The notes below the pieces were generated by a model. The model was not told the DNA's origin and did no database searches. It saw nothing but the letters and a program-made list of their open reading frames with translations. Below are positions 13,188 to 57,834 of a stretch of DNA of 64,000 nt, one piece after another. Each line of letters opens with the position of its first letter. Position 1 is the first letter of the stretch. A program made the position numbers and the translations under genes. Source of the DNA: an uncultured Mycoplasmatota bacterium (GTDB taxonomy: Bacteria; Bacillota_I; Bacilli_A; RF39; UBA660); assembly GCA_946407055.1 (NCBI GenBank), contig CAMJMP010000001.1, forward strand, positions 6,847 to 70,846, given 5' to 3'.

Positions 13188-15341
13188 ATGGATATAAAAG
13201 TAATTAACAAATGCGGTATTTTAGAAGATTTCGATCCACAGAGAATTGCAACTGCAATTCGAAAGAGTGCTAGTCGAGTGTTTGTGGATCTTACTGATGA
13301 CGATTGTAAAAAAGTATCAGATTACGTATATTCTACTTTAACTGAGAATGTTCCAGTTAAAACACTTCATAATATAGTAGAATGTGCATTAGATCATTGT
13401 GGTTTTAATTCAGTTGCAGAATCTTATCGTAGTTATCGTAACTATAAAACTGATATTAAAGAAATTTGGGAAGCGGTAATTAATAAAGAAATAGAATTAG
13501 ATTCTCAACCAGATCATTCTAATGCTAATTGTAATTCACAGTTAGTATCTACTAAAGGTATTCTTACTTATGGTGAGTTCCTTAAAGAATCTTATATGAG
13601 ATTCTTCTTAACACCAGAAGAAAGAAAAGCTGTAAATGAAGGATTTATTTACCCACATGATATGAAAGACCGATATAGAACATATAATTGTTGTTTATTA
13701 AATGTTGGTCGTATTATGAAAGGTGGATTTACTCTTGAAAATATGCCTTATACAGAACCAGGCAGTGTAGCTGCTGCGATAGCAGTTGCATCTGATATTA
13801 TAAGCGTTACTGCAGGAAATCAATATGGTGGTCTTACTTGGCCTCAAGTTGATGAGGATTTATCTTATTACTGTCAAAAATCATATAATTTTTATATTAA
13901 AGAATATAGTAATATTATAGGAGATGCTGGTTGTGGTGTAGACCCTCGTAAAGCAGATGACTATGCTTATAAAAAAGTAAAGAGAGAAATACAGCAAGGT
14001 TATCAAGGTATCGAACATACATTTAACAGTGTTTCATCTTGTAGAGGTGATTTTCCATTTATTAGTTTTAGTTTTGGTAACGGAACTGACAGATGGTCTA
14101 AACTTGTAAGTCAAACTATTCTTGAAACAAGAATGGGTGGTCAAGGTAAACCTGGTGGTAAAACACCTGTATTATTCCCTAAACTTATCTTTACTTATAG
14201 AGATGAGATACACGGAAAAGGTGGTATATCTGAAGATTTATTTGATTTAGCTGCTAAATGTTCTAAAGATACAATGTATCCTGATTTCTTAAGTCTTGAT
14301 GCTGGTTATGTTGGTAATATGTATAAGAAGACAGGCAAGATTATAACCATGATGGGTTGTAGAGCGTGTCTATCTCCTGATTATAATGAAGATGGAGAAC
14401 TTCTTATAAACAGATGTAATATGGGAGTTATTTCTCTCAATTTACCTATGTTCTATCAAAAGGCTAAATTAGAAAACAAAACTTTTTATGAAGTATTTGA
14501 TTATTACTTTGAATTAGCAAGACAAATTAATCTTAGAACTATTGAATATCTGAAAAGAAAACTTAAAGGAGCAAGTAGTCCACTTGCATTTATGGAAGGT
14601 GGATTTGATGATGGTTATGTTGGACCAAATGATTCTGTAGCTCCAATTCTTAAACATTCAACTATAAGTTTCGGTTATGGTGGTCTTAGTGAATTACAAA
14701 CTTTATATAATAAGGATCATAACATTGAAACTCATTACTATGAAGATTGTAATTTTGCTAAAGAAGTAATGACTTATTTTAATGATAAAGTAGAAGAAAT
14801 TAAGAAATCTGACAATGTACTTTATGCAATTTATGGAACTCCAGGTGAATCTTGGCTTCCACGTGCTTGTGATCAATTTGTTGAAATGTATGGACAAATT
14901 GAAGGAGTAACAGAAAAAGGTTTCTTCTCTAATTCATTCCATATTAACGTTGATGAAGACGTAACACCTATTGAGAAGATTAATTTTGAAAATCAATTCT
15001 TCCCATTATCTAAAGGTGGTTCAATTTGTCACGTTAAAATTCCTTCTATTTCTGATGAAATGTTAGAAGGTGTTAAAGCCATTATTCGTCATGCTATGAA
15101 AATTGGTAACTATCAATCTGTAAATCACGCAGCTAATAGATGTACTGATTGCGGACACCATTGGATTGGTGATGATAGTATGCCTTATGAACAGAACTAT
15201 AGATGTCCTGTTTGTGGTAGTATGAACACTGTCGGAATTCGTAGAATGAATGGTTATCTTGGATATTCTAAAACAATACTCGGAGTTAATAAATTTAACA
15301 AAGGTAAAATTAAAGAATTTAAACTAAGAAAAAATCTATAA
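13188..15341 (+). CDS. nrdD: Anaerobic ribonucleoside-triphosphate reductase (class III)
   Basis: N-terminal ATP-cone-like segment, C-terminal zinc ribbon 'CTDCGH...CPVCGS', and the glycyl-radical motif 'RRMNGYLGY'. Confidence 0.85.
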   Translation: MDIKVINKCGILEDFDPQRIATAIRKSASRVFVDLTDDDCKKVSDYVYSTLTENVPVKTLHNIVECALDHCGFNSVAESYRSYRNYKTDIKEIWEAVINKEIELDSQPDHSNANCNSQLVSTKGILTYGEFLKESYMRFFLTPEERKAVNEGFIYPHDMKDRYRTYNCCLLNVGRIMKGGFTLENMPYTEPGSVAAAIAVASDIISVTAGNQYGGLTWPQVDEDLSYYCQKSYNFYIKEYSNIIGDAGCGVDPRKADDYAYKKVKREIQQGYQGIEHTFNSVSSCRGDFPFISFSFGNGTDRWSKLVSQTILETRMGGQGKPGGKTPVLFPKLIFTYRDEIHGKGGISEDLFDLAAKCSKDTMYPDFLSLDAGYVGNMYKKTGKIITMMGCRACLSPDYNEDGELLINRCNMGVISLNLPMFYQKAKLENKTFYEVFDYYFELARQINLRTIEYLKRKLKGASSPLAFMEGGFDDGYVGPNDSVAPILKHSTISFGYGGLSELQTLYNKDHNIETHYYEDCNFAKEVMTYFNDKVEEIKKSDNVLYAIYGTPGESWLPRACDQFVEMYGQIEGVTEKGFFSNSFHINVDEDVTPIEKINFENQFFPLSKGGSICHVKIPSISDEMLEGVKAIIRHAMKIGNYQSVNHAANRCTDCGHHWIGDDSMPYEQNYRCPVCGSMNTVGIRRMNGYLGYSKTILGVNKFNKGKIKEFKLRKNL

Positions 15342-16360: not shown

Positions 16361-16855
16361 ATGATTATACATATTTACGATGATGATTTATTAAATGGAG
16401 ATGGCATCCGTGAAGTGGTTTTCCTTCAGGGGTGCCATCATCATTGTAAAGGATGTTTTAATTCTGAGACTTGGGAATTTAAAGTTCCAAGTTTTGATGA
16501 CGAACTCAAAGATGCAGAAAAATTAATGCATCTTGAGAATAAACTAAAGGAAGATTACATTGCTGGAGTTACAATAAGTGGAGGTGATCCATTAGCTCCA
16601 GAAAATGTAAAACAAACTAGCTTAATTGTTGATCTTGCTAAAAAATATAATAAAACTGTATGGATATATACAGGATATTTATATGAGGATTTAATAAATA
16701 AATATTATATTTTATTAAGTAATGTTGATGTATTATGTGATGGTCCTTTTATAGAAGAATTAAAATCTCCTAATAAACCTTGGGTTGGAAGTTCCAATCA
16801 AAGAGTGATAGATGTTCAAAAATCAATAAAACAAGGTACTGTAGTATTAAAATGA
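16361..16855 (+). CDS. nrdG: Anaerobic ribonucleotide reductase activating protein (radical SAM)
   Basis: 'FLQGCHHHCKGCFNSETW', 'SGGDPLAPENV', 'WIYTGY' and 'WVGSSNQRV' all align with conserved NrdG blocks. Confidence 0.85.
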   Translation: MIIHIYDDDLLNGDGIREVVFLQGCHHHCKGCFNSETWEFKVPSFDDELKDAEKLMHLENKLKEDYIAGVTISGGDPLAPENVKQTSLIVDLAKKYNKTVWIYTGYLYEDLINKYYILLSNVDVLCDGPFIEELKSPNKPWVGSSNQRVIDVQKSIKQGTVVLK

Positions 16856-17293: not shown

Positions 17294-17893
17294 ATGAAAC
17301 ATATTATTATTGTTGATTGTCAAGAGGATTTTTGCAATCCAGAAGGTGCACTTTATGTAAAAGGTGCTGAAGTAGCAGTTGAGAACATTAAAAAGTATCT
17401 TGAATCATTAAAAGATGAAAAGGATACTGTAAATGTTATATTTACAGTGGATTGGCATCCTCTTACTCATTGTTCTTTTAAAGAGAATGGTGGTCAGTGG
17501 CCTGTTCATTGTGTTAAATATACAAAAGGTTCTAATATTGTAGAACCTTTGATAAAAGCAGCATATTCAATACAGAAATATCCTGAAATCATCAAGAAGG
17601 GTTCTGATGAAAACAAGGAAGAATATGGAGCATTTGCACACTTTATCAATGAATTTTTATCTAATGGTGAAGTTGAATTCAAAGTAAACGGTGATAATTT
17701 TGATTATATAAGTTTCTATAGAGAAGACGATGAATTTATCATTTGTGGTGTAGCAGGTGATTATTGTGTTTATGAAACATATAAGAATCTTAAATGTATT
17801 GGTATGAATATAACTCCATATTATGATGGTATCGCTTTCATTGGTGAGAAATTTGATTTTGAAAAGCAATTTGAACTTGAATCTGAAGAATAA
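17294..17893 (+). CDS. pncA: Nicotinamidase / isochorismatase-family hydrolase
   Basis: 'IIVDCQEDFCNPEGAL', 'DWHPLTHCSF', 'WPVHCV' and 'ICGVAGDYCV' align with PncA catalytic and metal-binding blocks. Confidence 0.7.
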   Translation: MKHIIIVDCQEDFCNPEGALYVKGAEVAVENIKKYLESLKDEKDTVNVIFTVDWHPLTHCSFKENGGQWPVHCVKYTKGSNIVEPLIKAAYSIQKYPEIIKKGSDENKEEYGAFAHFINEFLSNGEVEFKVNGDNFDYISFYREDDEFIICGVAGDYCVYETYKNLKCIGMNITPYYDGIAFIGEKFDFEKQFELESEE

Positions 17894-18477
17894 TGAAAAA
17901 TCAACCTTGTTATGATATAGAAGGCAATCCAATAGGATGGCTTTCTCGTTCTGTTTGTGTAGTAACTCTTATTGTTGCTAAAGTAAAAGGTAAATACTAT
18001 GTTCTTGCATCACAAAGAGGTAAAGGAACTCCAGATCCAGAATTTGTTGGATCTTGGAACTTATGTTGTGGTTATCTTGATTATAATGAAACATTAAGAC
18101 ACGCTGCAACTCGTGAATTATTTGAAGAAACAGGTGTTATTGTTAAACCTGATAATTTAGTATTTTATAAAATCAATGATGATCCTTTTGGCGATAAACG
18201 TCAAAATATAACATTTAGATATTTCTATTTGTTAAAACGTGATTATCTTCCTACTACAACTAATTCTTATAGTGAAACAGATGAAGTTGAAAAAATTGAA
18301 TGGATTCCTATTGAAAAGATTAATAACTTTAAATGGGCATTTAATCATAAGGAATTGGTTAATGAAATGCTAGATTATTATATATTTAAAAATAATCTTT
18401 CTTTATGGCAACGCATAAGTACAAAGGTAAAGAATATGAAATCCAAACTGGTAAAAAAGGTGGTCAGTTCTTTGTAG
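17893..18477 (+). CDS. Nudix hydrolase
   Basis: Nudix box 'LRHAATRELFEETGV'. Confidence 0.75.
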   Translation: MKNQPCYDIEGNPIGWLSRSVCVVTLIVAKVKGKYYVLASQRGKGTPDPEFVGSWNLCCGYLDYNETLRHAATRELFEETGVIVKPDNLVFYKINDDPFGDKRQNITFRYFYLLKRDYLPTTTNSYSETDEVEKIEWIPIEKINNFKWAFNHKELVNEMLDYYIFKNNLSLWQRISTKVKNMKSKLVKKVVSSL

Positions 18478-19076: not shown

Positions 19077-19491
19077 GAAAATCCCAGGAATTACAAGCCT
19101 TCCGAAAAACATTTATGAACTTCTTAAACTTAAACTAACACCTGAAAACGAACTTGAAAATTTAGTTAAAGATCCAAAATTAATTGAAGGAATTAAAAAT
19201 TCTAAATCTGGTTGGATTAAGATTAAGAAAATTTCTAATAATATTGGATATTTATTTACAAATGAATCAGTATCTGGTTGGTTTGCAATATTAACAAAAG
19301 GAATGTCTTTACACTTGGGAGATGATTCACAGTTCTATTATACTTCTAACATTGTAGATATAGATTGGGATAAGAAACTATTTTTAACATTAAATTCTAT
19401 TTATTCATTTGAAATAACAGAATATGATGCTAAAGATATGATAGATGCTATTGAAGAACTATTCTCATCAAACGAAAATGCTGAAAGTTAA
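19060..19491 (+). CDS. Hypothetical protein
   Basis: 143-aa ORF. Confidence 0.35.
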
Positions 19492-19915
19492 TATAATTAA
19501 TAAATCTAATTACGATCTTCCTAAATATGCTACTCCACAAAGTGCAGGTATGGATCTTCGTGCAAACATTGAAGAAGATTTAATATTATTTCCTCGTGAA
19601 AGAAAACTTGTTTCTACAGGATTATATATACAACTTCCTGTTGGTTATGAAGCACAAATAAGACCTCGTAGTGGACTTGCACTAAAATATGGAATTACTG
19701 TACTTAATTCTCCTGGCACTATAGACGCTGATTATCGTGGAGAAATCATGGTATTGCTTATTAATCAAGGTGATGCTGCTTATACAATAGTTCCTGGAGA
19801 GCGTATTGCCCAAATGGTCATTGCTAAGCATGAACAAGTCGAATGGATTATTGCTGGAAGTTTAGATGAAACAGAACGTGGTGAAGGTGGATTTGGACAC
19901 ACTAAAAAGGATTAA
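19478..19915 (+). CDS. dut: dUTP diphosphatase
   Basis: dUTPase motifs 'AGMDLRA', 'RPRSGLA', '[10 protein letters not shown]' and 'RGEGGFG'; start set at the ATG at 19478. Confidence 0.85.
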
Positions 19916-23582: not shown

Positions 23583-23774
23583 ATGTTATACGAAGTAAGT
23601 GTAGAAACAAGAGGTGAATGGGTAGAGAAAACTAGCTATTTAGTAGAAGCTGAAAGTGAAGAAGAAGCTTTGGATAAATACTATAACGGAGATGTAGATG
23701 AAACAGATAGCCACCGTGACGAGTGGGAAAATTGGACATCTGAACCTGACGTTGTAGCGTGTGAAAACGAATAA
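23583..23774 (+). CDS. Hypothetical small acidic protein
   Basis: 63-aa ORF. Confidence 0.35.
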   Translation: MLYEVSVETRGEWVEKTSYLVEAESEEEALDKYYNGDVDETDSHRDEWENWTSEPDVVACENE

Positions 23775-24697
23775 TGAAACCATTTAAAATAACTCAGTCT
23801 ATTACTAATAAAGATGATATATCTATTAAAAATTATTTTAGAGATATATCTAAAATACCTTTATTAACGAAAGAAGAAGAGTTAGAATTAGGTTATATAA
23901 TTCAAAATAACCTTAAGAAATTAAATAATTCAGAAGAATTATCTTTACAAGAAAAACGATTAACTGAAATAGAAATTAATAAAGCAGTTAATAAACTTGT
24001 AAGTGCTAATTTAAAATTTGTTATTTCTGTAGCAAAACAGTATTGTAATCAAGGTTTACCTTTCATTGATTTAGTAAATGAAGGTAATCTTGGTATGATA
24101 CAAGCAGCTAAAAAGTTCGATCCTAATAAAGGATATAAATTTATAAGTTATGCAGTATGGTGGATTAGACAATTCATAATGCAAGCGATAGCTTTAAAAA
24201 GTAGAACTATTAAAACACCTGTAAATCAATCTGCTTCTTTATCTAAACTTAATAACGCAGTTAATAAGTTCGAACAATTAAATGGAATTAAACCTTCTTA
24301 TGAAGAATTATCTAAATTAACAGGAATATCGGTTGAAAAAATAAACAAGATTTATAGTTATAATTCAAGCTGTATTTCTGTTGATACTCCATTTACTACA
24401 GAAGAAGACTCTGGTTGTTTACTTGATGTTGTTAGAAATCCAAATTGTGAAGATTCTGATAAAAATCTAATGGATTCTTCTTTAAAACAAGATATAAATA
24501 GAGTTTTAGATAAGTTATCTCCTCGCGAAAAAGTAATATTACAAATGTTTTTCGGAATAGATTGTGATGCAATGCAGTTAGATCAAATAGCTCCTAAGTT
24601 CGGAGTTACATCAGAGAGAATAAGACAGATTAAAGATAAAGCAATAGAACAGATTATTGTAAAATATAAATCTATCTTAAAAACATATATTATATGA
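23774..24697 (+). CDS. Sigma-70 family RNA polymerase sigma factor (RpoD-like, lacks region 1.1)
   Basis: Region 2 'IDLVNEGNLGMIQAAKKFDPNKGYKFISYAVWWIRQ' and region 4.2 'LDQIAPKFGVTSERIRQIKDKA'. Confidence 0.85.
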   Translation: MKPFKITQSITNKDDISIKNYFRDISKIPLLTKEEELELGYIIQNNLKKLNNSEELSLQEKRLTEIEINKAVNKLVSANLKFVISVAKQYCNQGLPFIDLVNEGNLGMIQAAKKFDPNKGYKFISYAVWWIRQFIMQAIALKSRTIKTPVNQSASLSKLNNAVNKFEQLNGIKPSYEELSKLTGISVEKINKIYSYNSSCISVDTPFTTEEDSGCLLDVVRNPNCEDSDKNLMDSSLKQDINRVLDKLSPREKVILQMFFGIDCDAMQLDQIAPKFGVTSERIRQIKDKAIEQIIVKYKSILKTYII

Positions 24698-27916: not shown

Positions 27917-28810
27917 ATGAAAACATTAAAAGATTATGCTGATTTTCTTTATAAAAATGGATATAAAGAGAATTTTGCACCATATACATTTTGTGATGAT
28001 GAATTAGAGATAGTAGAATTTATAAAAAATAATTATCATATAAATTTATATGTTATAAAAACAGAAGAATTTTCTGATTATTTAGCTTCTCTTCCATTAG
28101 GAACGGAATATGAACTTAAATATGAAAATTATATTGTAAAATCAGCATTTATTGAATCTCCAATTTGTAATATACCTGACTTTCTAACTGGAGAGGTTGA
28201 AGGAATACAATTGGATTTAAAATCAAATGATTATAACAAACATACACTAGATTTGTTTGAATTATGTATTGGTTTTCAGAAAACAAATTTGCTTGAACAT
28301 GAATTATTTATAATGTCACGTAGACAAGAACATTTAATTTGGGCAAAAGATAATTTGATTCCTGTTCTTGAAAAGCATGACTATTATATTACTTTCGATT
28401 CATATTTCGATGTTAAAAAAGAAAGATGTTCTTCTAATATGAGCATAGAATTTAAACATCCTAATAATGCAGAAGTTGTTTTTGAAATTGATTGTTTAAC
28501 AGGTGAACCTATCATTTGGTCTAATATTAATTCAGGTACTTTTACTGATTTAGCTAATAAGATTTATGGCAAGAATAAAGAAGATGTATATAATATCTTA
28601 TTAGAAGAAGTGTGGAAGAAAGATGACCTTAAATTTGGTTACATATATAATAATGATCCACATGAAACAATAGATACTTGGAGAGAAGTTTATTCTTTAA
28701 TGGATTGTTTACATTATAAAGAAATACGTGATATAAACTTCGATATTATTCCTAAACGATATAATCATTTAGTTGAAGAATATAATAAATTATTAAATAA
28801 AGAAAAATGA
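27917..28810 (+). CDS. Hypothetical protein
   Basis: 297-aa ORF overlapping thyX by 4 nt. Confidence 0.4.
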   Translation: MKTLKDYADFLYKNGYKENFAPYTFCDDELEIVEFIKNNYHINLYVIKTEEFSDYLASLPLGTEYELKYENYIVKSAFIESPICNIPDFLTGEVEGIQLDLKSNDYNKHTLDLFELCIGFQKTNLLEHELFIMSRRQEHLIWAKDNLIPVLEKHDYYITFDSYFDVKKERCSSNMSIEFKHPNNAEVVFEIDCLTGEPIIWSNINSGTFTDLANKIYGKNKEDVYNILLEEVWKKDDLKFGYIYNNDPHETIDTWREVYSLMDCLHYKEIRDINFDIIPKRYNHLVEEYNKLLNKEK

Positions 28811-29886
28811 AATTAGTAAAACAGTCTTACGAAATATTAGAACAAGAAATTCCTGTTCATAAGCTGGATGATTATTCAGGTTATCATTTCAGAGAACAAT
28901 ATCTTGAAAATATGTATAAGCATATTGAAAGATGTGGAAGAACTTGTTATAAATCTGAGAATAAAATAACACCAGATAGTTCTAAAAAGTTTGTAGATGG
29001 ACTTATTAAGTCTAAGCATTTAAGTGTTCTTGAACATGGAACTATTTATTTGTATATTCCAGTAAATCCTTACGATTCCGATTTAGTTTATCATGTTAGA
29101 AACGAATATGTAGAAAATCCTTATTCTAAAGCTATATATGTTGGACTTGATGATGATGAACCACCTTATCGTGATATTTTAGGAAATCCTGCACACGGTG
29201 ATATGCAATATGTTATTACTACTAATTTTAGAGTATTAGTAGAAAATGATTGGCTTGATGATTTGAAATATCTTTGTGAGCCAACTAAATATCATGAGTT
29301 AAGACATACTGTACTTCTTCATTCTTGTATCCATACTTATAAGGATTTAACAAGACATAGAAAAATGAGTTTCAGTATCGAAAGCACACGTTATTGTAAC
29401 TATTCTAAAACTGATAAGTTTGGAGAAATGAAGTTTGTTCTTCCACCTTGGATTAAAGAAAAACCAACTTGTAATTGGGAACATCCTCAAAAGTTACATC
29501 AACCTCTTAGAAAAGAAGGAGAACCTCTAAATGATTTTGGAAGAGTTTGGTATGAACTTTGTATGGAAGATGTAGAAAGAAATTGGGATACAGACGAATT
29601 TAAGTTAATAACAAAATGGAATTCTGCTGATTTTTATTGTCATGGGTTAAAATGTGCGGAAGATAGTTATAATCTTCTTATAGAATTAGGTTGGCAACCT
29701 CAACAAGCAGCAGAAGTTCTTCCACAATCTACAGCTGCTGATGTAATTATGTCAGGATTTGATGAAGATTGGAAATTTGTATTTGATCTTAGATCTGATA
29801 CTGCTTTAACAGGAAAGCCTCATCCTCTTGTAGAAGAAATTATGACTCCACTTCGTGATGAATTTAAAGCAAATAATTGGATATGA
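28807..29886 (+). CDS. thyX: Flavin-dependent thymidylate synthase
   Basis: ThyX signature 'RHRKMSFSIESTRY' (RHR-x7-S). Confidence 0.75.
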   Translation: MKLVKQSYEILEQEIPVHKLDDYSGYHFREQYLENMYKHIERCGRTCYKSENKITPDSSKKFVDGLIKSKHLSVLEHGTIYLYIPVNPYDSDLVYHVRNEYVENPYSKAIYVGLDDDEPPYRDILGNPAHGDMQYVITTNFRVLVENDWLDDLKYLCEPTKYHELRHTVLLHSCIHTYKDLTRHRKMSFSIESTRYCNYSKTDKFGEMKFVLPPWIKEKPTCNWEHPQKLHQPLRKEGEPLNDFGRVWYELCMEDVERNWDTDEFKLITKWNSADFYCHGLKCAEDSYNLLIELGWQPQQAAEVLPQSTAADVIMSGFDEDWKFVFDLRSDTALTGKPHPLVEEIMTPLRDEFKANNWI

Positions 29887-30674: not shown

Positions 30675-30860
30675 ATGAAAATATTTTTGATTAACGTTTT
30701 ATTTCTTATATTTGGAATATATTTTAGTATTATATCATTATTTATTATATTAGGTAAATGGTTATTACAATTTATTCCAGAATCATGGGAAATTCCAGAA
30801 GACGAACCTTGGAAAATTAATCTTAAATTAGCTGATTTTGTTGAAAATGAAATTAAATAA
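30675..30860 (+). CDS. Small membrane protein
   Basis: ATG at 30675; transmembrane helix 'IFLINVLFLIFGIYFSIISLFIIL'. Confidence 0.3.
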   Translation: MKIFLINVLFLIFGIYFSIISLFIILGKWLLQFIPESWEIPEDEPWKINLKLADFVENEIK

Positions 30861-31482
30861 TTTAATAAATGATTTTGGTGATGGATCAAATGTATATTTT
30901 ACATCTGATACACACTTTGGTCATAAATCTATAATAGAATGTACCCATAGACCGTTTTCAAATACTGTTGAAATGGATACAGCAATAATTGCATTGTGGA
31001 ATGAGACAGTAGGACCTAATGATATTATATTTCATTTAGGTGACTTTTGTTGGAATGGTGCACAAAAGTGGGTAGAAATTCTTAAACAGTTAAATGGAGT
31101 AAAATATTTAATTGTCGGAAATCACGATGTAAAACGTTTGAAAGGAAATGTTTTACAATATTTTGAAGATATTAAATATCAAACGACTCTTTTAATAGAC
31201 GATTGGCATTTATATCTTAATCACTATCCTTTTCTTTGTTTTGGTGGAACATATCGTAAAGGTGCAAAAGTAGCACAAGCATTTGGTCATGTTCATTATG
31301 AAAAACTAAGTCAAGGATTAGATGTAGATAGACTTAATTATCTATTTCCAGCACAATATGATGTTGGTGTAGATAATAATTATTTCTGTCCAATTAGTTG
31401 GAAAGAATTAAAAGATAAATTCGAAAAGCAAATTAATGCTGATTGTAACATGAGGCATTATAAACCTTTAGAATTTGAATGA
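30847..31482 (+). CDS. Calcineurin-like metallophosphoesterase
   Basis: 'YFTSDTHFGH', 'HLGDF' and 'GNHD' metal-binding motifs. Confidence 0.6.
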   Translation: MKLNNLINDFGDGSNVYFTSDTHFGHKSIIECTHRPFSNTVEMDTAIIALWNETVGPNDIIFHLGDFCWNGAQKWVEILKQLNGVKYLIVGNHDVKRLKGNVLQYFEDIKYQTTLLIDDWHLYLNHYPFLCFGGTYRKGAKVAQAFGHVHYEKLSQGLDVDRLNYLFPAQYDVGVDNNYFCPISWKELKDKFEKQINADCNMRHYKPLEFE

Positions 31483-31506
31483 TATATAGACGTTATCAAT
31501 ATTGGG

Positions 31507-31541
31507 GTCCAGGCGCTAAAATCGCCTGGACTTCTTGGTTT
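31507..31541 (+). terminator. Putative terminator hairpin
   Basis: GTCCAGGCG-CTAAAAT-CGCCTGGAC followed by TTCTTGGTTT. Confidence 0.5.
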
Positions 31542-31624
31542 AAATACGATACTAAGAAATCTTTAGATGAATTAAGAAAACAAAAACCTGTTTTTAAAAA
31601 TCTTTTGGAAGAATATAAAGAAAT

Positions 31625-32221
31625 ATGATTGAATTTAGATTAAATTTTTATATTAAATCTCTTTTAGCGGGTGTATTAATTGGATTAGGAGATATTATTT
31701 ATGTAGTATCTGAAAATCATATACTCGGTGCATTTTTATTTTCACTCGGACTTTTAACAATTCTTATTAAAGAATATCCTCTTTATACAGGAAGGGTGGG
31801 GTACATAAAAAATTACGATGATTTTGTAGATTGTTCACCAATGATTCTTTTCAATTTCATTGGTATAGCTTTAGTGTGCGGTTTTGCTAATATTACTAAT
31901 CTTGATTTATCTGCGGTAAATATGATAGTTAGTAATAAGCTACATCAAGAATGGTATAGTACTCTATTCTTATCATGGGGATGTGGAGCAATGATGTATT
32001 TTGCAGTAAATGGATGGAAGAAAACAGGAAATCCAATTGCAGTTATCATGCCTATTATGTTCTTCATACTTTGTGGCTTTGAGCATTGTATTGCTGATTA
32101 TGGATATTTTATGATGTATAAGTTCAAAGAAGCTATAGATTTTGATTATCATGCTGGAATGTTTATTTTAATAGCAATTGTAGGTAATGCTTTAGGAAGT
32201 TTAACATTTAGTAAAATTTAA
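31625..32221 (+). CDS. Formate/nitrite transporter (FNT) family channel protein
   Basis: 'SLGLLTIL...LYTG', 'ILCGFEHCIADY' (compare the FocA signature 'ASGFEHSIANM') and 'IVGNALGSL' (compare 'IGNIIGG'); multiple transmembrane helices. Confidence 0.55.
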   Translation: MIEFRLNFYIKSLLAGVLIGLGDIIYVVSENHILGAFLFSLGLLTILIKEYPLYTGRVGYIKNYDDFVDCSPMILFNFIGIALVCGFANITNLDLSAVNMIVSNKLHQEWYSTLFLSWGCGAMMYFAVNGWKKTGNPIAVIMPIMFFILCGFEHCIADYGYFMMYKFKEAIDFDYHAGMFILIAIVGNALGSLTFSKI

Positions 32222-32224
32222 TAA

Positions 32225-32737
32225 ATGGATATTGCAAATAAAAACGTACTATTTTTCGACCTTGATGGAACAATAATAAATACTATATCTGGAAAGACAT
32301 TTCCAGCTGGTGTTTGGGATATGGAAATTGATCTTAGAGTATTAAGTACATTAGACAAACTTAAACCAGAATATATATTTATTGTATCAAATCAAGGAGG
32401 AATCGAAAAAGGATTTGTAAATCGAAAATCTTTTGCTGCTAAATTTGAATATGTAAAGCAAGCAATTTTTGATTATTTAGGTGATACTAATATAATCGTA
32501 GATGGTATGTATTGTACCAATGATGATAAAGCTAATGAATACAGAAAACCTAATATAGCAATGCTTGAAACATTACTTAGAAAATATAGCATTTTAAATA
32601 CTAAAGAAACAATGCTAATGGTAGGTGATGCTTCGGGTAAACCTGGGGATTTTTCAGATTCTGATAAGAAGACTGCCAAAAATTTCGGTATAGATTATCT
32701 CGATGTAGAAGATTTTATTTCTTTATTTAATAATTAA
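32225..32737 (+). CDS. HAD-IIIA family phosphatase (polynucleotide 3'-phosphatase / GmhB-like)
   Basis: 'VLFFDLDGTIINT' motif I, 'VSNQGGIEKGF' motif II (compare 'TNQSGIGRG') and 'MVGDASGK' motif III/IV. Confidence 0.55.
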   Translation: MDIANKNVLFFDLDGTIINTISGKTFPAGVWDMEIDLRVLSTLDKLKPEYIFIVSNQGGIEKGFVNRKSFAAKFEYVKQAIFDYLGDTNIIVDGMYCTNDDKANEYRKPNIAMLETLLRKYSILNTKETMLMVGDASGKPGDFSDSDKKTAKNFGIDYLDVEDFISLFNN

Positions 32738-32743
32738 AATTTT

Positions 32744-33190
32744 ATGAAGTATATTGGTATTAAAATAATAGACGCTGTTCCTATGACAGCAGAAGAAGCA
32801 ATTAGACGTGGTTATTATCAAATAAATGGTAATAAAGGTGACGGTTATGAAATAACTTATGAAGAAGGATATAAGTATTGGTTTCCTAAAGAAATATTTG
32901 AGGAACATTATCATGAAATCAAAAACAAAGAACTTGCAGAAACTGCTAAGTTAATGGTTTCTTCTGATTATAAAGAGAGATTTAGAGCTGAGTGTATTCA
33001 ACTCGAGAATCGTTATGAAGGTCTTAAGAAAATGGTTGAAAGTTGGGATAATGGTACATTACCTTTTACTCCTACTTGTCCTAGAGAAATTTACGACGAG
33101 CAACTTGCAGCTATGAGAGCTTATATGAAAGTTCTTACTGAGCGTGCTCATATAGAAAATATACCTATATATAATGAAAATACTATTTAA
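32744..33190 (+). CDS. Hypothetical protein
   Basis: 148-aa ORF. Confidence 0.4.
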   Translation: MKYIGIKIIDAVPMTAEEAIRRGYYQINGNKGDGYEITYEEGYKYWFPKEIFEEHYHEIKNKELAETAKLMVSSDYKERFRAECIQLENRYEGLKKMVESWDNGTLPFTPTCPREIYDEQLAAMRAYMKVLTERAHIENIPIYNENTI

Positions 33191-34171: not shown

Positions 34172-35068
34172 ATGAATATTTATAAAAACGGAAATTATAC
34201 AGTTGTAATTCTTCAAGATGGAACTAAAATAAGAAAGACAAATGATGATGAATTTATTCCTTCATTTGCTGAAAATTGTGATGTAAAAATTACAGATAAG
34301 TGTTCAATTGGATGTCCTTGGTGTTATGAAGGATGTACTAAGGAAGGTAAACATGGTGATTTATTTAAGTATAAATTTATTGAAACACTACATCCTTATA
34401 CCGAAATGGCACTTAATGGAAATGATTTAAATCATCCACAACTTGAAGAGTTCCTTAATTTCCTTAAAACTAAAAAAGTATTTGCAAATATTACTGTTCA
34501 TCAAAAGCAGTTTATAAATAATTACGATTTTATTAAAAGGCTTATTGATAACAAATTAATTTACGGTATTGGTATTTCTTATAATCATTATAATCAAGAT
34601 TTTATTGATAAGATTAAAGAAATACCAAATGCTGTACTTCACACTATTAATGGTATTCTTTCTGAAGATGATATAAACAAGCTGAAAGGAAACAACCTTA
34701 AAGTTCTTGTACTTGGATATAAATATCTTCAAAGAGGAATATCATATAGTGATGATAACCAATATATTATTGATAAGAATTGGAAGTATCTTAAAGAAGA
34801 ACTTCCAAAGATTATTGCTAATAATTATTTTCAACTTATTTCATTCGATAATCTTTCTCTAAATCAACTTGATGTTAAAAGACTTCTTAGTGATAAAGAA
34901 TGGGAAGAGTTCTACATGGGTGATGATGGTAAATACACTTTTTATATAGATATGGTAAAAGGTGAGTTTTCTAAAAATTCTATTGCTTCTGAAAGATACC
35001 CTATTGGAGATAAGACTATTGATGAAATGTTTAAATTTATTACATCTAAAAATGAAGTTACAAATTAG
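34172..35068 (+). CDS. Radical SAM domain protein
   Basis: 'DKCSIGCPWCYEG' CxxxCxxC cluster near the N-terminus; 298 aa; no additional C-terminal Cys clusters, so no SPASM domain; translationally coupled to the next gene. Confidence 0.5.
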   Translation: MNIYKNGNYTVVILQDGTKIRKTNDDEFIPSFAENCDVKITDKCSIGCPWCYEGCTKEGKHGDLFKYKFIETLHPYTEMALNGNDLNHPQLEEFLNFLKTKKVFANITVHQKQFINNYDFIKRLIDNKLIYGIGISYNHYNQDFIDKIKEIPNAVLHTINGILSEDDINKLKGNNLKVLVLGYKYLQRGISYSDDNQYIIDKNWKYLKEELPKIIANNYFQLISFDNLSLNQLDVKRLLSDKEWEEFYMGDDGKYTFYIDMVKGEFSKNSIASERYPIGDKTIDEMFKFITSKNEVTN

Positions 35069-36846: not shown

Positions 36847-37179
36847 ATGGGAGAAAAGAAATTATATCAAGTATTTAGAATTGACATATGTTTCACATCA
36901 TATGCAATTGATTATGTATTTGTTGGAGGCGAGTCTGCAGAGGATATAAGAAATCATTTTAAAGACGTATTCTCAGACGAAAAGATTGAAGTTTGTGAAT
37001 ATACTAAAGACGAATATCCTGATAATGAAATAGGAGATATTGTATATGAACCACAATATACAGATGATGAAATTGAAGAAATTTTTAGTTCTTCACAATT
37101 TCCTCGTATTGCTCCAGTAAAGGATCTTTATACTACAACACCTTATTGTATTTTAGACTCTATTGCTTATTACGAATAA
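36847..37179 (+). CDS. Hypothetical acidic protein
   Basis: 110-aa ORF. Confidence 0.35.
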   Translation: MGEKKLYQVFRIDICFTSYAIDYVFVGGESAEDIRNHFKDVFSDEKIEVCEYTKDEYPDNEIGDIVYEPQYTDDEIEEIFSSSQFPRIAPVKDLYTTTPYCILDSIAYYE

Positions 37180-37181
37180 AT

Positions 37182-37928
37182 ATGGCATACTTTTATGAAT
37201 CTCATGAACATACTGCCAAAATGGAAGAGTTGTTCAGTAAAGAAATTAAAAATTGTATTAATAATACAAGTGTATATCGTGTTATGTCGGATTTTAATCC
37301 GACTAACATAGATATTACAGTAGAAGCTTTAACAACATCTGATGCAATTACTAAATACAAAGATTCAAAAAGACTTTGTTGTTTAAATTTTGCTTCTTTC
37401 CGACATCCTGGAGGTAGTTTTGGTTATAAAGAAGTACATCTTGCACAAGAAGAATGGATTTGTAAAGATTCATTCCTTTACAACATATTAAAGGAATTTA
37501 AAAACGAATATGTTAAAAATAGTTTTTGTAATAATTATGATTTATACGAAAACTTTGCATTATATTCTCCAGACGTTGTTTTTGTAGACACAGAATACAA
37601 TCCAATTGCTAAGTGTGATGTTCTTACTTGTGCTGCACCTAACGCTAAGGTTGCTCGTAAAAACTATAATGTAGATACTAAAGATATTGAACACGCAATG
37701 CGTCAACGTATTGATTTTGTTCTATCAACAGCAAAAGCACAAGGAGTTAAGACTTTCATTCTTGGAGCTTTTGGTTGTGGAGTATTTGAAAATGATCCTA
37801 CTTTTGTATCACAGACTTTTAAACATTTGTTAGATACCAAGGATTACGGTTTTGAAAAAATTATTTTCGCTATTCCAGGTGGTCCTAATCTTAAAGCTTT
37901 TCAAAAAACATTTTATACAAAATATTAA
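37182..37928 (+). CDS. Macrodomain-fold PARG-like (DUF2263/TIGR02452-like) ADP-ribose-processing protein
   Basis: 'HPGGSFGYKEVHLAQEE' matches the bacterial PARG signature GGG-x6-8-QEE, and the 'ILGAFGCGVFENDP' diphosphate-binding loop is present; start set at the ATG at 37182. Confidence 0.55.
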   Translation: MAYFYESHEHTAKMEELFSKEIKNCINNTSVYRVMSDFNPTNIDITVEALTTSDAITKYKDSKRLCCLNFASFRHPGGSFGYKEVHLAQEEWICKDSFLYNILKEFKNEYVKNSFCNNYDLYENFALYSPDVVFVDTEYNPIAKCDVLTCAAPNAKVARKNYNVDTKDIEHAMRQRIDFVLSTAKAQGVKTFILGAFGCGVFENDPTFVSQTFKHLLDTKDYGFEKIIFAIPGGPNLKAFQKTFYTKY

Positions 37929-46718: not shown

Positions 46719-48092
46719 ATGGATCCAATAGTAATACAAGGAAAATATACTAAAGCAGAAATATACGCAAAAACTATAGAAGATGGTGTATATTCTCAAA
46801 TATATGATATAATCAATTGTCCAGCTTTCAAAGATAAAAAAGTAGTCCTTATGCCAGATGTTCATGTTGGAGCATCTGGTCCTTGTGGACTATGTGCTGA
46901 AATTGGTGACTGGATTTGTCCAGAACACGTTGGTGTTGATATAGGTTGTACTGTATCAATGATGGTTCTTAATAAAAAGATACCTGTTGAAAAATATGCT
47001 GAAATAGAGCATAAAATTAAAAAAGAAATCCCAATGGGTACTAATATTAGAGATATTTCTATTTTTAAAGCAAATAGAATACTTTCTAATTATTTACAAG
47101 AAAAGGATTTCTATAAATTTTTATCAACAAATTTCAATATATATCGTCAGTATTGGCCTGAAATGCTTAATGATTTGCCAACAACTGTAACAGAAGAGTG
47201 GATTTCATCACAACTTAAACGTCTTGGTATGGATGAAGGTGTGTTTTATAAATCTCTCGGAACTATAGGCGGTGGTAATCATTTCATTGAATATGATGAA
47301 TCTGACGATACTGAATATTCTTCTGCTATAACTCTTCATTTTGGTTCAAGAAACTTTGGAGTTAAGATTTGTAAGTATTGGACTGCAAAAGCAGGAAAAG
47401 GTGTTGATAAATCAAAACTAAAAGAAATTACTAAAAACTTCAAAGAAGAGTATAAGAAAACACATTCTGATATGAAGGACTTTCAATCAGCTTTATCAGA
47501 GGTTATAGAACAAGAAAAAGCTAAACTTATTCCTGGTTATTTAACAGGAGAAAATATGAAAGGCTATCTAATAGATATGTGTTTCGGACAACTTTATGCT
47601 TTATATAATCATAGAGTTGTACAAAATATCATAAGTGGAATTTTATATAAATATGATATTAAAGTAAAGGAAATTGTACATACATCGCATAATTTTATTG
47701 ATTTGGAAGATCATATTCTTAGAAAGTCTGCAATTAGTGCAAAATTCAGAGAACCTATGATTGTTCCATTTAATATGAGAGATGGTGTTGCAATATGTAT
47801 TGGAGTTGGAAACGATAATTGGTTAAATTCTTGTGCTCATGGAGCTGGACGTAAAATGTCTCGATCTAAAGCAAAAGAAACATTATCAATGGAAGAGTTT
47901 AAGAATACTATGTCAAACATATATTCTACTTCTGTCAGTGAAAATACCATTGATGAATCTCCTATGGCATATAAAGACTCTGAAGAAATACAAGAAATTA
48001 TACAAGATACTTGTGTAATTAAATGTAGATTATTTCCTAAAATTAGTATTAAATGTGATGAGGCTCCTTTAGAACCTTGGAAAAATAAGTAA
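46719..48092 (+). CDS. rtcB: RtcB-family RNA 3'-phosphate/5'-OH ligase
   Basis: 'LMPDVHVGASGPCG' metal-binding N-terminal motif and 'NSCAHGAGRKMSR' RtcB signature; 457 aa. Confidence 0.75.
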   Translation: MDPIVIQGKYTKAEIYAKTIEDGVYSQIYDIINCPAFKDKKVVLMPDVHVGASGPCGLCAEIGDWICPEHVGVDIGCTVSMMVLNKKIPVEKYAEIEHKIKKEIPMGTNIRDISIFKANRILSNYLQEKDFYKFLSTNFNIYRQYWPEMLNDLPTTVTEEWISSQLKRLGMDEGVFYKSLGTIGGGNHFIEYDESDDTEYSSAITLHFGSRNFGVKICKYWTAKAGKGVDKSKLKEITKNFKEEYKKTHSDMKDFQSALSEVIEQEKAKLIPGYLTGENMKGYLIDMCFGQLYALYNHRVVQNIISGILYKYDIKVKEIVHTSHNFIDLEDHILRKSAISAKFREPMIVPFNMRDGVAICIGVGNDNWLNSCAHGAGRKMSRSKAKETLSMEEFKNTMSNIYSTSVSENTIDESPMAYKDSEEIQEIIQDTCVIKCRLFPKISIKCDEAPLEPWKNK

Positions 48093-48096
48093 TGTT

Positions 48097-48507
48097 ATGT
48101 GTTTAACAAGATCAAACATGAATTGTGGTCCTAGATATGCAACTGAGGACATAATTTGTTATAAGATATTATATAAATTTAATAAAGGTATATATTGTTC
48201 TCCTTATATGAAGTTTCCATATAAGTTAAATGAACGTATATCATCTGATTTTAGTTTTGTATCTCTTCCTCCAGTAAAGATGTCTCCACAAAAAGAATAT
48301 AAGTTTATTAGAATTTTAACATATTTTAGACAAGTAAACAAAGGTTTACATTCGTTTAAATATTTAATAGATGCTAATAAATTTAATAATCGTTTTCTGG
48401 GAGGGACAGTTATGAAATGTATAATACCAAAAGGAAGTTGGTATTATGAAGGAAGAGGTGATGAATTAGTTTCTGATAATATAATAATAATTGAAGAAAG
48501 TAAATGA
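48097..48507 (+). CDS. Hypothetical protein
   Basis: 136-aa ORF. Confidence 0.35.
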   Translation: MCLTRSNMNCGPRYATEDIICYKILYKFNKGIYCSPYMKFPYKLNERISSDFSFVSLPPVKMSPQKEYKFIRILTYFRQVNKGLHSFKYLIDANKFNNRFLGGTVMKCIIPKGSWYYEGRGDELVSDNIIIIEESK

Positions 48508-49187
48508 AAATATTAATAACAAGTGATTTACATGGTTTTCTTCCATATATTGATCAACCAGCAGATTTATTATTAATCTGTGGTGATATTGTTCCGTTAT
48601 CTGTTCAATCAAACGGACATAAATCAAAAGTTTGGTTTAGAGATGTATTTAAAAAATGGGCAGAAGAACTTCCTGTAGACAAAGTAATATTTATTGCAGG
48701 AAATCATGATTGGTTTCCTTATTGGGATGAAGGAACAAAATTAAGAAATCTATTTCCACATGATTCTAAAGTTACATATATTCAAGATGAACTTTATGAA
48801 TATAAAGGAATTAAAATATATGGAACTCCTTGGTGTAAACAATTTTATAATTGGGCATTTAATCTTAATGAAGAAGGATTGAAAGAAAAATATTCTCAAA
48901 TTCCAGAAGGTATAGATATATTAATTACGCATGATGCTCCAAATCAAAATGAAGTTGGAATGATTCACGATGGAATATATAAAGGAGAAGATGCAAGTAA
49001 TTATATTCTTACTGATATAATTAAACAGAAAGCTCCAAAATATTGTTTCTGTGGACATATTCATTCTGGAAATCATCTTTCAAAAGAAATAGATGGAATT
49101 ACATTTGCAAATTGTTCTTATGTAAATGAACAATATGTACCTGTTAATGATTTACATATTTTATATATAGATGACAAAGACGCTTAG
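48504..49187 (+). CDS. Calcineurin-like metallophosphoesterase
   Basis: 'ILITSDLHGF', 'GDIVP', 'GNHDW' and 'GHIHSG'. Confidence 0.6.
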   Translation: MKILITSDLHGFLPYIDQPADLLLICGDIVPLSVQSNGHKSKVWFRDVFKKWAEELPVDKVIFIAGNHDWFPYWDEGTKLRNLFPHDSKVTYIQDELYEYKGIKIYGTPWCKQFYNWAFNLNEEGLKEKYSQIPEGIDILITHDAPNQNEVGMIHDGIYKGEDASNYILTDIIKQKAPKYCFCGHIHSGNHLSKEIDGITFANCSYVNEQYVPVNDLHILYIDDKDA

Positions 49188-51813: not shown

Positions 51814-51863
51814 AAGGGCGACTTGATTGGATAAACTCCAGTCAGGTCGCCCTTATTTTTTTA
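51814..51863. terminator. Terminator shared by both strands, between the convergent + and minus gene blocks
   Basis: AAGGGCGAC...GTCGCCCTT stem followed by ATTTTTTT; also the 3' end of the minus-strand gene 51861-56660. Confidence 0.6.
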
Positions 51864-54800
51864 CTCTTGTGAATTAACTTTAAGTGTATGGAATACAGGT
51901 TTAAATTGGTTGAATAAGGCATTTGATTTACCAATTGTGGTATAAATGCTTTGATCTCCGAATATTGTTTCGTGAACATTACTATATTGTTTTCCTAAAT
52001 ATTCGAAAGCAAACGGTGTCCAACTAACAGCTGGATCTCCAATAGTATCTATAAAGTTAAAATCTAAGAATGAATTTTTAACAGATTTAATTGCTATATT
52101 ATATGCTGATAATTTAAGTGCATCACCCATATCGGTTTCACTTGAATTTTTCTTTTCATCATCATAAGCTCCTGCTAATGCTGCAGCTATGATGTTTCCA
52201 ACAAGCATAAACATTATTAAATCATAACCTAATTGTTTCATATTAGAACGATATGCAGTACGTAAATTTAAATCTTCATTATACCACATATTTCTCCATC
52301 CATCTGAGATTCCATCGTTTTTCATACTACCTAATAAAGTATATATAGTAGAAACAATTCCTTCTTTCCAATTACCTTCCCAACGAACAACTTGTTCAGT
52401 TGAAGCATTTTCATCTCCTTCTTTTACAGGAGGTTCATTAAATAATATGTTGCCTTCTGCATCTTTTTGATAATAATATTTTATAGTATTACCACTTTCA
52501 TCTTTTTCAGTATAAGGAACCCAACGTCCTTCAAGTTTTACACCACCATGTGCAAGATATTGATTCTTTTTACCAGACCAGAATGTTTTAAACTGCATGA
52601 ATAATGAACCCCAAAGTGTTGATTGAATCATAGATTTCTTTTCATGTGAATAATAACCATAAAGTGTATCACCTAAAGATTTCATTGATTCTGACTCTAA
52701 GTTTGTATAAGCACGAGGTAGTTTTGTTTTCTCTGATAAATCAAATTTAAACTTACTACCATCTGGATTTAAAGCATTTTCTTTTTCAAATTGTCTTGCA
52801 GCTGCAATGTAAAGCATTTTAGCTTTTTCATATTCAGCTGGGTTAGATCTATCATCATCAAAAAATGCTTTATATCTCTTATCTAAAGCACAATCATATT
52901 CAAGTACTCCTTTACTATTAATTTTATGTGCTTCATAAGAACCTTCATTAATCATCTTAGCAACAAAGATTGTCATTCTGTTATAATAGTCTGGACGTGA
53001 TGCAAATTTAAATAAGAAGTTATTGAAATTAAATATACCGTTTTGGTCAGTCTTTATTTTATCAATATATGTATTCATATCCATATCATTGACACCATAA
53101 AGTCTATTAAACTCTTCAATTATTGTTGGTTTATCTGTATAGGCTTGTGGATTAGTTAATTCTCCATAAACTATTTTAGCTGCCTCTAACATATTAGATA
53201 ATGTAAAAGCATCAGTTCCATCTGGCTTACGGATTATTAATGATATGTCTTGCCATATACCTTGTATTGTCTGATAAATTGCTTGAACAGGAGATAAGCC
53301 AAGAACTAATTTAGATGCTGCTTGTTTGATTTTATTTAAAAATGCAACAGCAGGTCTATACTTTTCTGGAATAATTGATTCATTTTTAATCTTATTTTTA
53401 ACATAATTTTCAAGATATTCAAGGTCGTTTTTGAAACCTTCCTCTACATTTTGATTAAAACCTTGAACTGTAAGATTAATCATAGATGCTTTAATCATAG
53501 GGAACACTTCATTTACACGATTTTTCATATCATATGCAAAAGTATGTTTTAAGAAAAGTGTTTCAAGATTAAGTTCATATCTTTTACGAGCTAATATCTT
53601 ATCACGAAGTTTTCCTTCTCCGTAATCAAAATAATTAGTCATTTCAAATAAAGACTCAGAACTTTTATATTCTTGTTGTAATTTATCATCAAAAATTCCT
53701 TCAACAGATGCTTTTGCTCTTCTCCAAGCCTCTTTTGGTAACCAACCTTTAAGTCTATCTTTAAATGCTGCAAGAAGTCCATCTTTTGCAGAAATTACAG
53801 AAGTGTCTCCTTCACAAAGAGGTATTCTATAATATTTAGGATTATTCTTTTCGTATCCTCTATTTTCATTTATTATAGGAAGAACATATTGTAAAAATTC
53901 TTTTTCTTCTGGTAATAAACTATCATCTGTATCAGGATCTTTAAAATACACTTCTCCATCTTTATCAAATTCATACATATTAATGTATAAAGATGCTTGA
54001 TTACCTGTTGTATTTTCTTTAAGCCATCCAAAGTTTTTACGTTTTTTTAATTTTTCTACTAATTCGCGCATTTTAGCAGCAGGTTCTTGTATATCAGCGC
54101 GTACGTTTTGATAAGCTTCTGTTACTAATTTTGTTACAGAATTAAGTGTTTCAGATGATAAGTTACCAGGGTTATCAATCATATTACCACTAAGTCCTTC
54201 TTTATGAACCATTAATGATTGACACCAGTTTTCATGGTCATGTAATTGTTGTTTAAAGTTAATACCTTTAAGTTCAGCAATAGCAAGTAAACATTGATTG
54301 TATAATGCTACATGATCTTTAGATAATTGGTCTTGATTAGTAGTATAATTCTTTAAGATTTTACCTTTATCGGTTGTTTCAAGTTTTTTAATAATATCTT
54401 GAAGTGCTGATATTTTTTCATCTATAGAAGCATTACTTTCTATAGCAGTATCTAAAGCACTTTGACAACTCTTAAAATCTTTAAATTTAGAATATTCTTC
54501 TAACTCAGTTTTAACCATTATATCAGAAAGCATTGTTTTAGCTAATTGAACTTTAGCTGCCATTTTAATTTCTCCAGATTTGAAATTATTTCCTATAGAA
54601 ATTTTGCCTTCTGTACCACTTACTGTTTCTAATTCATTAAATGTATCAAATAGTTCTTTATTAGAACCAGCTTGAATACCTACACCTAATTGAGGATCGG
54701 CAACAAATACGTCACCTACACAAGCATTTTCTTTATCAATTAATTTATTTAACTGATTAATTGCAAGCATTGCTTCAATAAGTTCTATATTACCATATGT

Positions 54801-57709: not shown

Positions 57710-57834
57710 TTCTTAAAAAGGTCTTAACACGTTCTTAATTCCTCCATTAATGCTTGTTCATATAATGAAGCGTAATAATCTAAATCTGCTACTGTTTTAC
57801 CATCTATTTCCTTAGTAGGCATTTTACTCAAATA

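Follow-up and report, generated by a model that had tools for sequence, protein, structure and literature searches.

The 64,000-nucleotide window analyzed here, part of contig CAMJMP010000001.1 from an uncultured bacterial assembly (GCA_946407055.1), carries on its plus strand (31625..32221) a gene for a 198-amino-acid channel that belongs to the formate/nitrite transporter family (FNT). The window is phage-like, with approximately 50 kb of plus-strand genes and a GC content of approximately 28%, and also encodes both components of a class III (anaerobic) ribonucleotide reductase (RNR), NrdD and its activase NrdG. By sequence, fold and pore residues the protein is a bona fide FNT. Sequence comparison places it in a large, uncharacterized subfamily of short FNTs (185-220 amino acids) that is common in gut and rumen anaerobes. 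The gene is of host origin, its substitution pattern indicates purifying selection, and other members of the subfamily directly adjoin nrdD and/or nrdG in phage loci from several distinct lineages. We propose that the phage short FNT may let formate in as the reductant for the phage NrdD/NrdG class III RNR during anaerobic infection, a proposal for which we see about an even chance.

A short FNT-family channel with an intact pore

The open reading frame (ORF) begins with ATG and carries, exactly as the original prediction had claimed, the motifs 'GFEHCIADY' (residues 151-159) and 'GNALGSL' (residues 187-193). Its family membership was confirmed by Pfam PF01226 (Form_Nir_trans), which scored 60.2 bits (E 2.6e-16; the gathering cutoff is 34.6) and aligned over profile positions 20-233 of 240, and by a profile of 14 family members that matched all solved FNTs (FocA of V. 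cholerae, E. coli and Salmonella, NirC, HSC and PfFNT) with E-values from 5e-13 to 2e-4. An AlphaFold2 monomer model made with 73 homologues (pLDDT 91.4, pTM 0.87) showed the canonical FNT helix pattern, an aquaporin-like fold of six transmembrane (TM) segments with predicted helices TM1 (2-28), TM2a (32-49), TM2b (54-60), TM3 (64-88), P-helix (97-106), TM4 (110-134), TM5a (138-150), TM5b (155-169) and TM6 (175-197). An omega-loop carrying T55 breaks TM2 in this model, and an S-loop carrying H154 breaks TM5. When the model was searched against the PDB with Foldseek, the top matches were FNTs only, with query TM-scores (TMq) of 0.86-0.87 for HSC, 0.83 for NirC and approximately 0.78 for FocA and PfFNT. 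The comparison of topology and structure with FocA, NirC and HSC found the FNT fold, and neither an unrelated family nor a loss of the constriction residues.

Residues were mapped to E. coli FocA numbering via HMMER alignments, with roles taken from published definitions of the FNT constrictions (F75, F202 and A212) and cytoplasmic slit (L79, L89 and V175) (PMC5525234). The constriction residues F75, F202, H209 and A212 are identical in the window protein (F39, F147, H154 and A157), as are L79, L89 and T91 of the slit (L43, L53 and T55), and the V175 position holds another hydrophobic residue (M124). N121, K156, L167, E208 and N262 are kept as N77, K105, L116, E153 and N188, the Leu at the L167 position being of the FocA type; F90 is replaced by another aromatic residue (Y54) and A171 by another small one (C120). 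Among the positions that differ are S92 (G56, a Gly as in HSC and NirC), T93 (R57) and N172 (G121). When 126 short-family sequences were aligned (86 from cells, 36 from viruses and 4 belonging to the window lineage), the positions equivalent to F75, L79, L89, T91, N121, F202, H209, A212 and N262 proved invariant, and all 126 had Lys or Arg at the K156 position. H209 and T91 are needed by FocA for formate uptake (PMC11841067). The pore as a whole matches HSC and NirC as well as FocA. A role as a holin or membrane toxin was rejected in view of the fully conserved pore residues and the position of the gene in a nucleotide-metabolism string and not in a lysis module.

With FocA (E. coli, Salmonella and Vibrio; PDB 3KCU, 3Q7K and 3KLY) the protein shares the Pfam family, the fold and the motifs 'GFEHxIAN' and 'GNxxGG/S'. 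FocA is, however, approximately 285 residues long, and its N-terminal helix of about 30 residues, which binds PflB, is absent in the short FNT (PMC11841067). The short subfamily further differs from FocA in having Pro or Asn at the D88 position, Gly at S92, Lys or Arg at T93 (82 of the 86 cellular sequences, Arg in the window) and mostly Gly at N172, and in having lost K191; the L167 position stays Leu. There was also no pfl gene among the window ORFs scanned with Pfam (44 ORFs of at least 148 amino acids, including 43 of the 48 ORFs of at least 150). The FocA equivalog model (NCBIfam TIGR04060) scored 33.5 bits against a cutoff of 290.1, and the broader 'fnt' subfamily model (TIGR00790) 47.1 bits against 232.3. 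With this score, without the PflB-binding helix and with the FocA-specific residues S92, T93 and N172 changed, the protein, which had been described as FocA-like, is not so in the strict sense.

The best structural matches were HSC from C. difficile (PDB 3TDO) and NirC (PDB 4FC4), which share with the window protein the Gly after the omega-loop Thr and an aromatic residue at the FocA T34 position. At the L167 position, however, the short family has Leu where these two have Lys or Arg, and at position 172 it has Gly where they have Asn; HSC and NirC are also approximately 50-60 residues longer. The Gly in place of N172, in the open-state cytoplasmic slit, is found in the likewise uncharacterized YfdC-alpha and YfdC-beta groups (Mukherjee et al. 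2017, PMC5525234). YfdC proteins, however, have Val, Ile or Met at F202, Glu at position 92 and Phe at position 79 and have lost E208; because F202, G92, E208 and L79 are kept in the short family, it forms a group of its own. Judged by these residues, the short-FNT pattern fits none of the eight published FNT subgroups.

The short length is shared with cellular relatives. A search of 5.8 billion proteins gave 262 matches, of which the best 120 were almost all 186-243 amino acids long, and an exhaustive profile search gave 292 clusters (50% identity) at E<=1e-30, the top 150 of which were nearly all 182-249 amino acids long apart from a few fragments and one 298-residue protein. A scan of GTDB found at least 489 species-level matches, including Prevotella, Alistipes, Rikenellaceae, gut Bacilli, Clostridia, Ruminococcus albus 8, Extibacter muris and Fibrobacter. 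The window protein begins at approximately FocA residue 30, and alignments start at FocA residue 38, which corresponds to window residue 12. All six TM helices are kept, and the residues missing relative to FocA come partly from the N-terminus and partly from four loops (TM1-2, TM2b-3, TM3-4 and TM5-6). It had been suggested that the protein may be an N-terminally reduced variant; it is indeed shorter with a reduced N-terminus, but the four loops are shortened as well, and the length is normal for the cellular subfamily and therefore not a phage-specific truncation.

A role in nucleobase salvage was suggested by the first cellular homologue inspected (P0016, Prevotellaceae), which is divergent from a cluster of uracil phosphoribosyltransferase (UPRTase), xanthine/uracil permease and phosphoribosyltransferase genes; it was dropped, as the context of the second homologue was unrelated and no partner was conserved over 80 genomes. 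The closest cellular homologue (Prevotellaceae contigs L001-L005; FNT at 8001-8633 in L001) is likewise divergent from such a UPRTase/permease/phosphoribosyltransferase cluster, and a Bax1-I (YccA-like) membrane protein comes after it; other genomes did not share this context.

Linkage to nrdD and nrdG among viral loci and origin of the window gene

A scan of IMG/VR recovered 33 viral contigs with a short FNT, many of them 100-356 kb in length. Linkage was called by clustering of neighbors together with Pfam and tblastn, and the short FNT was found directly beside nrdD and/or nrdG in 14 of the 33 loci, 13 with NrdD and one with NrdG only. The order nrdD-nrdG-FNT occurred in L095, L098, L103, L110, L116-118 and L121, with junctions that often overlap or span less than 50 nt; nrdD-FNT occurred in L108, L109 and L111, FNT-nrdD in L102 and L107, and nrdG-FNT at a contig edge in L097. 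Three further loci (L112, L113 and L120), included when single-linkage clustering gave a count of 16, were rejected, tblastn and Pfam showing an NAD-dependent DNA ligase there. Once near-identical contigs were collapsed, the linked loci represented approximately 10 of about 23 lineages. Their FNTs are 27-41% identical to the window protein and stand on separate deep branches of the tree. Nine of the 33 viral loci also had a dUTPase, 1-4 kb downstream of the FNT.

Among cellular loci the same linkage was found in only 3 of 80, compared with 14 of 33 viral loci (Fisher p = 1.1e-6, and 9e-6 by lineage). A large serine recombinase close to one of these three (L065) marks that locus as a probable prophage. 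In the other two, from uncultured Bacilli metagenome-assembled genomes (MAGs) of the Hadza gut (L085:2837-6549 and L080), nrdD, nrdG and a short FNT follow one another on one strand with gaps of 195 and 43 nt, and the flanks look cellular (a DUF6320/zinc-ribbon protein, an NAD-dependent epimerase and a TauE-like protein). The arrangement suggests a chromosomal nrdD-nrdG-FNT operon, and the NrdD linkage would therefore not be confined to phages. In INPHARED, 2,898 phages encode NrdD, while tblastn found a short FNT in 2 of 50,697 records, both of them short unannotated contigs without a visible NrdD; this makes the pairing specific to uncultured phages of the gut and rumen.

Both RNR components are confirmed in the window, and NrdD resembles formate-dependent enzymes. 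NrdD (13188..15341, plus strand; Pfam PF13597, 363 bits) has an N-terminal ATP-cone, and NrdG (16361..16855, plus strand) is a radical-SAM activase matched by Fer4_12 (132 bits) and Radical_SAM. The best PDB matches of NrdD were the enzymes of S. thermophilus (9d3x, E 4e-81) and phage T4 (1h78, E 8.5e-75). Its finger loop 'MMGCRAC' (14334..14390) aligns with 'PMGCRS' of these two enzymes, and the 'YNCCL' motif is present. The Met two residues before the radical Cys presumably has the role known from M382 of E. coli NrdD. Three residues past the radical Cys is an extra Cys that has no counterpart in T4, S. thermophilus or P. copri (PMGCRSF, PMGCRSF and TMGCRTR, respectively). An extra active-site Cys together with a Glu is said, in work attributed to Wei et al. 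in 2014, to define the thioredoxin-type NrdD2. The M-G-C-R loop was present in every FNT-linked NrdD whose loop fell in retrieved sequence. Formate was the reductant in assays of the S. thermophilus enzyme, which counts as an NrdD1 (PMC9176816), the group for which the E. coli, L. lactis and T4 enzymes are archetypes (PMC9176816; PMC4493059). The original statement that NrdD needs formate holds to the extent that the window enzyme is closest to these formate-dependent enzymes and carries the Met-Gly-Cys loop; formate dependence is thus well supported by homology, which is less than proof.

The window FNT gene itself lies in a tightly packed string on one strand. Upstream is a calcineurin-like metallophosphoesterase (30838..31482; Pfam PF00149), followed by a 49-residue ORF (31479..31628) whose stop codon overlaps the FNT start codon (ATGA), an overlap that suggests translational coupling. 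A PNK3P-type HAD phosphatase (32225..32737; PF08645, 82 bits) starts 4 nt past the FNT stop, and a crAss001_48-related protein (32744..33190; PF21825) comes next. The same order, beginning with ThyX and running through the metallophosphoesterase, the 49-residue ORF, the FNT, PNK3P and the crAss001_48-like gene, was found on three metagenomic contigs (L006-L008), whose FNTs are 92-95% identical to that of the window. The PF21825 match hints that the phage may be related to the crAss-like phages of Bacteroidales; the entry is named 'crAss001_48 related protein' in the current library and 'Sequestin' in a precomputed table for L006.

The next closest proteins, 209-210 amino acids long and approximately 56-67% identical, are on Prevotellaceae and Bacteroidales MAG contigs, which we regard as cellular from their content of genes such as those for TonB-dependent receptors, glycoside hydrolases and UPRTase. 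In a neighbor-joining tree the window lineage is sister to the Prevotellaceae clade, to whose chromosomal genes the window copy is 58-67% identical, inside a Bacteroidales group; the gene was therefore captured from a Prevotellaceae-type host, and an assignment to a Bacteroidales phage fits because of the crAss001_48-related neighbor. Relative to the copy in the sibling phage L006, from another metagenome, dN/dS (the non-synonymous substitution rate divided by the synonymous one) was 0.16, with 16 amino-acid changes and none at the listed pore positions. These values indicate that the gene is under purifying selection, and hence maintained. The gene could nevertheless be a host-derived passenger without a role in infection, or a protein repurposed for membrane perturbation or superinfection exclusion. 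Its plain derivation from chromosomal Prevotellaceae genes would fit, as would its rarity in deposited phages and the fact that no PHROG family matched it. The low dN/dS with every pore residue retained, the synteny kept in sibling phages of three other metagenomes and the repeated capture or retention in many phage lineages all argue the other way, and we consider a passenger or repurposed protein highly improbable.

It had been noted that phage FNTs do not seem to be often described, and they are indeed rare, though known. BFVD gave a single viral structural match, the auto-annotated 191-residue 'Formate/nitrite transporter [Siphoviridae sp. ctTnV63]'. There is also a published T4-like cyanophage contig on which focA, the gene of a full-length cyanobacterial nitrite transporter, lies beside nirA (Gazitua et al. 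2021, PMC8115048). As in our window lineage, that gene is host-derived and under purifying selection, and it adjoins the enzyme that consumes its anion, as the nrdD/nrdG-linked short FNTs may (PMC8115048). It differs in being 86% identical to a Prochlorococcus protein and paired with nitrite reductase for nitrogen assimilation, whereas here a short FNT is paired with nrdD/nrdG in gut and rumen phages. The cyanophage focA-nirA pair was the sole relevant report in the literature searched for FNT or focA together with phage and NrdD, in which no nrdDG-FNT linkage was described. The coupling of a short FNT to class III RNR in phages is recurrent and, it seems, undescribed.

Other genes of the window

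The plus-strand block encodes a DnaB-like helicase, a primase, an ATP-dependent ligase, RtcB, homing endonucleases, a sigma factor, a dUTPase (19445..19915; PF00692) and ThyX, in addition to NrdD and NrdG. A megablast search of INPHARED with 20 kb of the window returned no DNA-level relative. The sigma factor (23774..24697, plus strand) is a full-length member of the sigma-70 family with regions 1.2, 2, 3 and 4, and a GIY-YIG/NUMOD1 homing endonuclease (3983..4849, plus strand) lies inside the replication module. A 298-residue protein (34172..35068, plus strand) carries an N-terminal CxxxCxxC ('CSIGCPWC'), a radical-SAM-like motif; it had no Pfam match and is 298 residues long in the siblings L006-L008 as well.

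Several genes point to RNA and nucleotide-derivative metabolism. The RtcB RNA ligase (46719..48092), the PNK3P-type 3'-phosphatase and two calcineurin-like phosphoesterases (the one upstream of the FNT and another at 48504..49187) taken together resemble a toolkit for RNA (tRNA) repair, with the FNT gene embedded between two of its members. An isochorismatase-family (nicotinamidase-like) protein adjoins a NUDIX hydrolase (17294..18477, plus strand), and the two may form a phage pair for salvage of NAD or nicotinamide, or for handling of ADP-ribose. A microbial-type poly(ADP-ribose) glycohydrolase (PARG) catalytic domain (37146..37928, plus strand; 72 bits) may act against host defenses based on ADP-ribosylation.

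The far end of the window (51861..63997) is a minus-strand block of very large ORFs of 1599, 352, 1002 and 651 residues, none with a PHROG match. The sole Pfam match in the block is a PD-(D/E)XK nuclease domain in the 1599-residue protein, whose relatives (36% and 26% identity) were found only in unannotated human fecal 'Bacteriophage sp.' contigs. A LAGLIDADG homing endonuclease (61000..61704) lies within the same block.

Proposed formate entry for anaerobic deoxyribonucleotide synthesis

In the proposed mechanism, the six-TM channel, presumed to be a homopentamer, would be placed in the inner membrane of the host during anaerobic infection and would be co-expressed with NrdD. External formate would enter the periplasmic vestibule, where K105 (the equivalent of FocA K156) is conserved, would be protonated via an H154/T55 relay as proposed for FocA uptake (PMC11841067), and would pass the hydrophobic constrictions as formic acid. 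After its release into the cytoplasm, NrdD would oxidize formate to CO2 while reducing ribonucleoside triphosphates, one formate for each deoxyribonucleoside triphosphate (dNTP). Lacking the PflB-docking helix, the channel should not depend on host PflB. The original prediction had allowed for supply or retention of formate; retention is not something a channel can do, and uptake is the plausible direction. The idea of formate supply gains independent comparative support from the approximately 10 other phage lineages in which a short FNT adjoins nrdD/nrdG.

Several observations weigh against this proposal. The residues of FNT pores do not tell formate, nitrite, hydrosulfide and lactate apart, and selectivity could differ from that of FocA because D88 and K191 are absent, the T93 position is Lys or Arg and the N172 position is mostly Gly, as in YfdC. 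In vivo, translocation by E. coli FocA requires its N-terminal helix and PflB (PMC11841067), and that helix is missing here. The native role of the short FNT need not be tied to NrdD, since among the 80 cellular loci the gene had no conserved partner, its best shared neighbor being an ABC/FtsX transporter in 11 of 80. In the window, NrdD and NrdG are real and share the strand and the nucleotide-metabolism region with the FNT, but 'alongside', as the original prediction had it, does not mean adjacent: NrdD ends 16.3 kb upstream, and the immediate neighbors are the phosphoesterase and the PNK3P phosphatase. The viral status of the 33 contigs is IMG/VR's own, and the neighborhoods cover +/-8 kb per contig.

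The protein could also be a host housekeeping channel that the phage keeps as a general weak-acid or anion valve, through which export of formic or lactic acid (or else of nitrite or HS-) would stabilize cytoplasmic pH and fermentation flux during host shut-off, in which case the proximity to NrdD in other phages would reflect only clustering of metabolic genes. FocA itself is seen chiefly as an efflux route for pH homeostasis (PMC11841067), the short FNT genes of cells stand alone in varied contexts, and the fit of the pore to HSC and NirC is as good as to FocA. However, clustering of metabolic modules does not readily explain direct adjacency to nrdD/nrdG, with overlapping junctions or gaps below 50 nt, in approximately 10 lineages and in three orders, and the invariant protonatable His is needed by FocA for uptake and not for efflux (PMC11841067). 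We consider a general valve rather unlikely.

Imported formate might instead go chiefly into one-carbon metabolism, where the host's formate-tetrahydrofolate ligase and FolD would convert it to methylene-tetrahydrofolate for phage ThyX and for purines. ThyX, a flavin-dependent thymidylate synthase (28807..29886, plus strand; PF02511), lies 1.7 kb upstream in the FNT gene string and might use up one-carbon units derived from formate as a second, indirect sink; the NrdD-linked viral locus L110 also has ThyX. Across the viral loci, however, ThyX was near the FNT in only 1 of 33, compared with 13 of 33 for NrdD, and neither formate-tetrahydrofolate ligase nor FolD was among the window ORFs scanned, which also contained no pyruvate formate-lyase, no formate dehydrogenase and no Gly_radical protein besides NrdD. 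As the main use of the channel this seems improbable to us; a one-carbon role is in any case compatible with formate supply to NrdD and does not exclude it.

Beyond the window gene, the short FNT subfamily might be a dedicated channel supplying formate as reductant for class III RNR, repeatedly captured by gut and rumen phages, often in an nrdD-nrdG-FNT operon, because the formate at hand in anaerobic hosts would set a limit to viral DNA synthesis. We advance this broader proposal tentatively, at somewhat below even confidence. Class III RNR uses one formate per dNTP, which for a large phage that makes many genome copies amounts, by our estimate, to tens of millions of formate molecules per cell. 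If phages bring their own formate channel, the supply of reductant, besides that of nucleotides, would be a bottleneck of anaerobic viral replication.

Of the FNT scaffolds seen here, that of the short subfamily is the smallest, with a full pore and without the PflB-docking helix needed by E. coli FocA, and for that reason it should be a useful minimal system for the requirements of FNT translocation. If the proposal is correct, a function would be assigned to an uncharacterized, minimal and PflB-independent FNT clade, and the phage protein would be, to our knowledge, the first phage channel described as delivering a co-substrate to an enzyme of phage nucleotide synthesis. The known auxiliary metabolic genes would gain a further transporter class, and the proposal would tie the productivity of gut and rumen phages to the formate cross-feeding pool.

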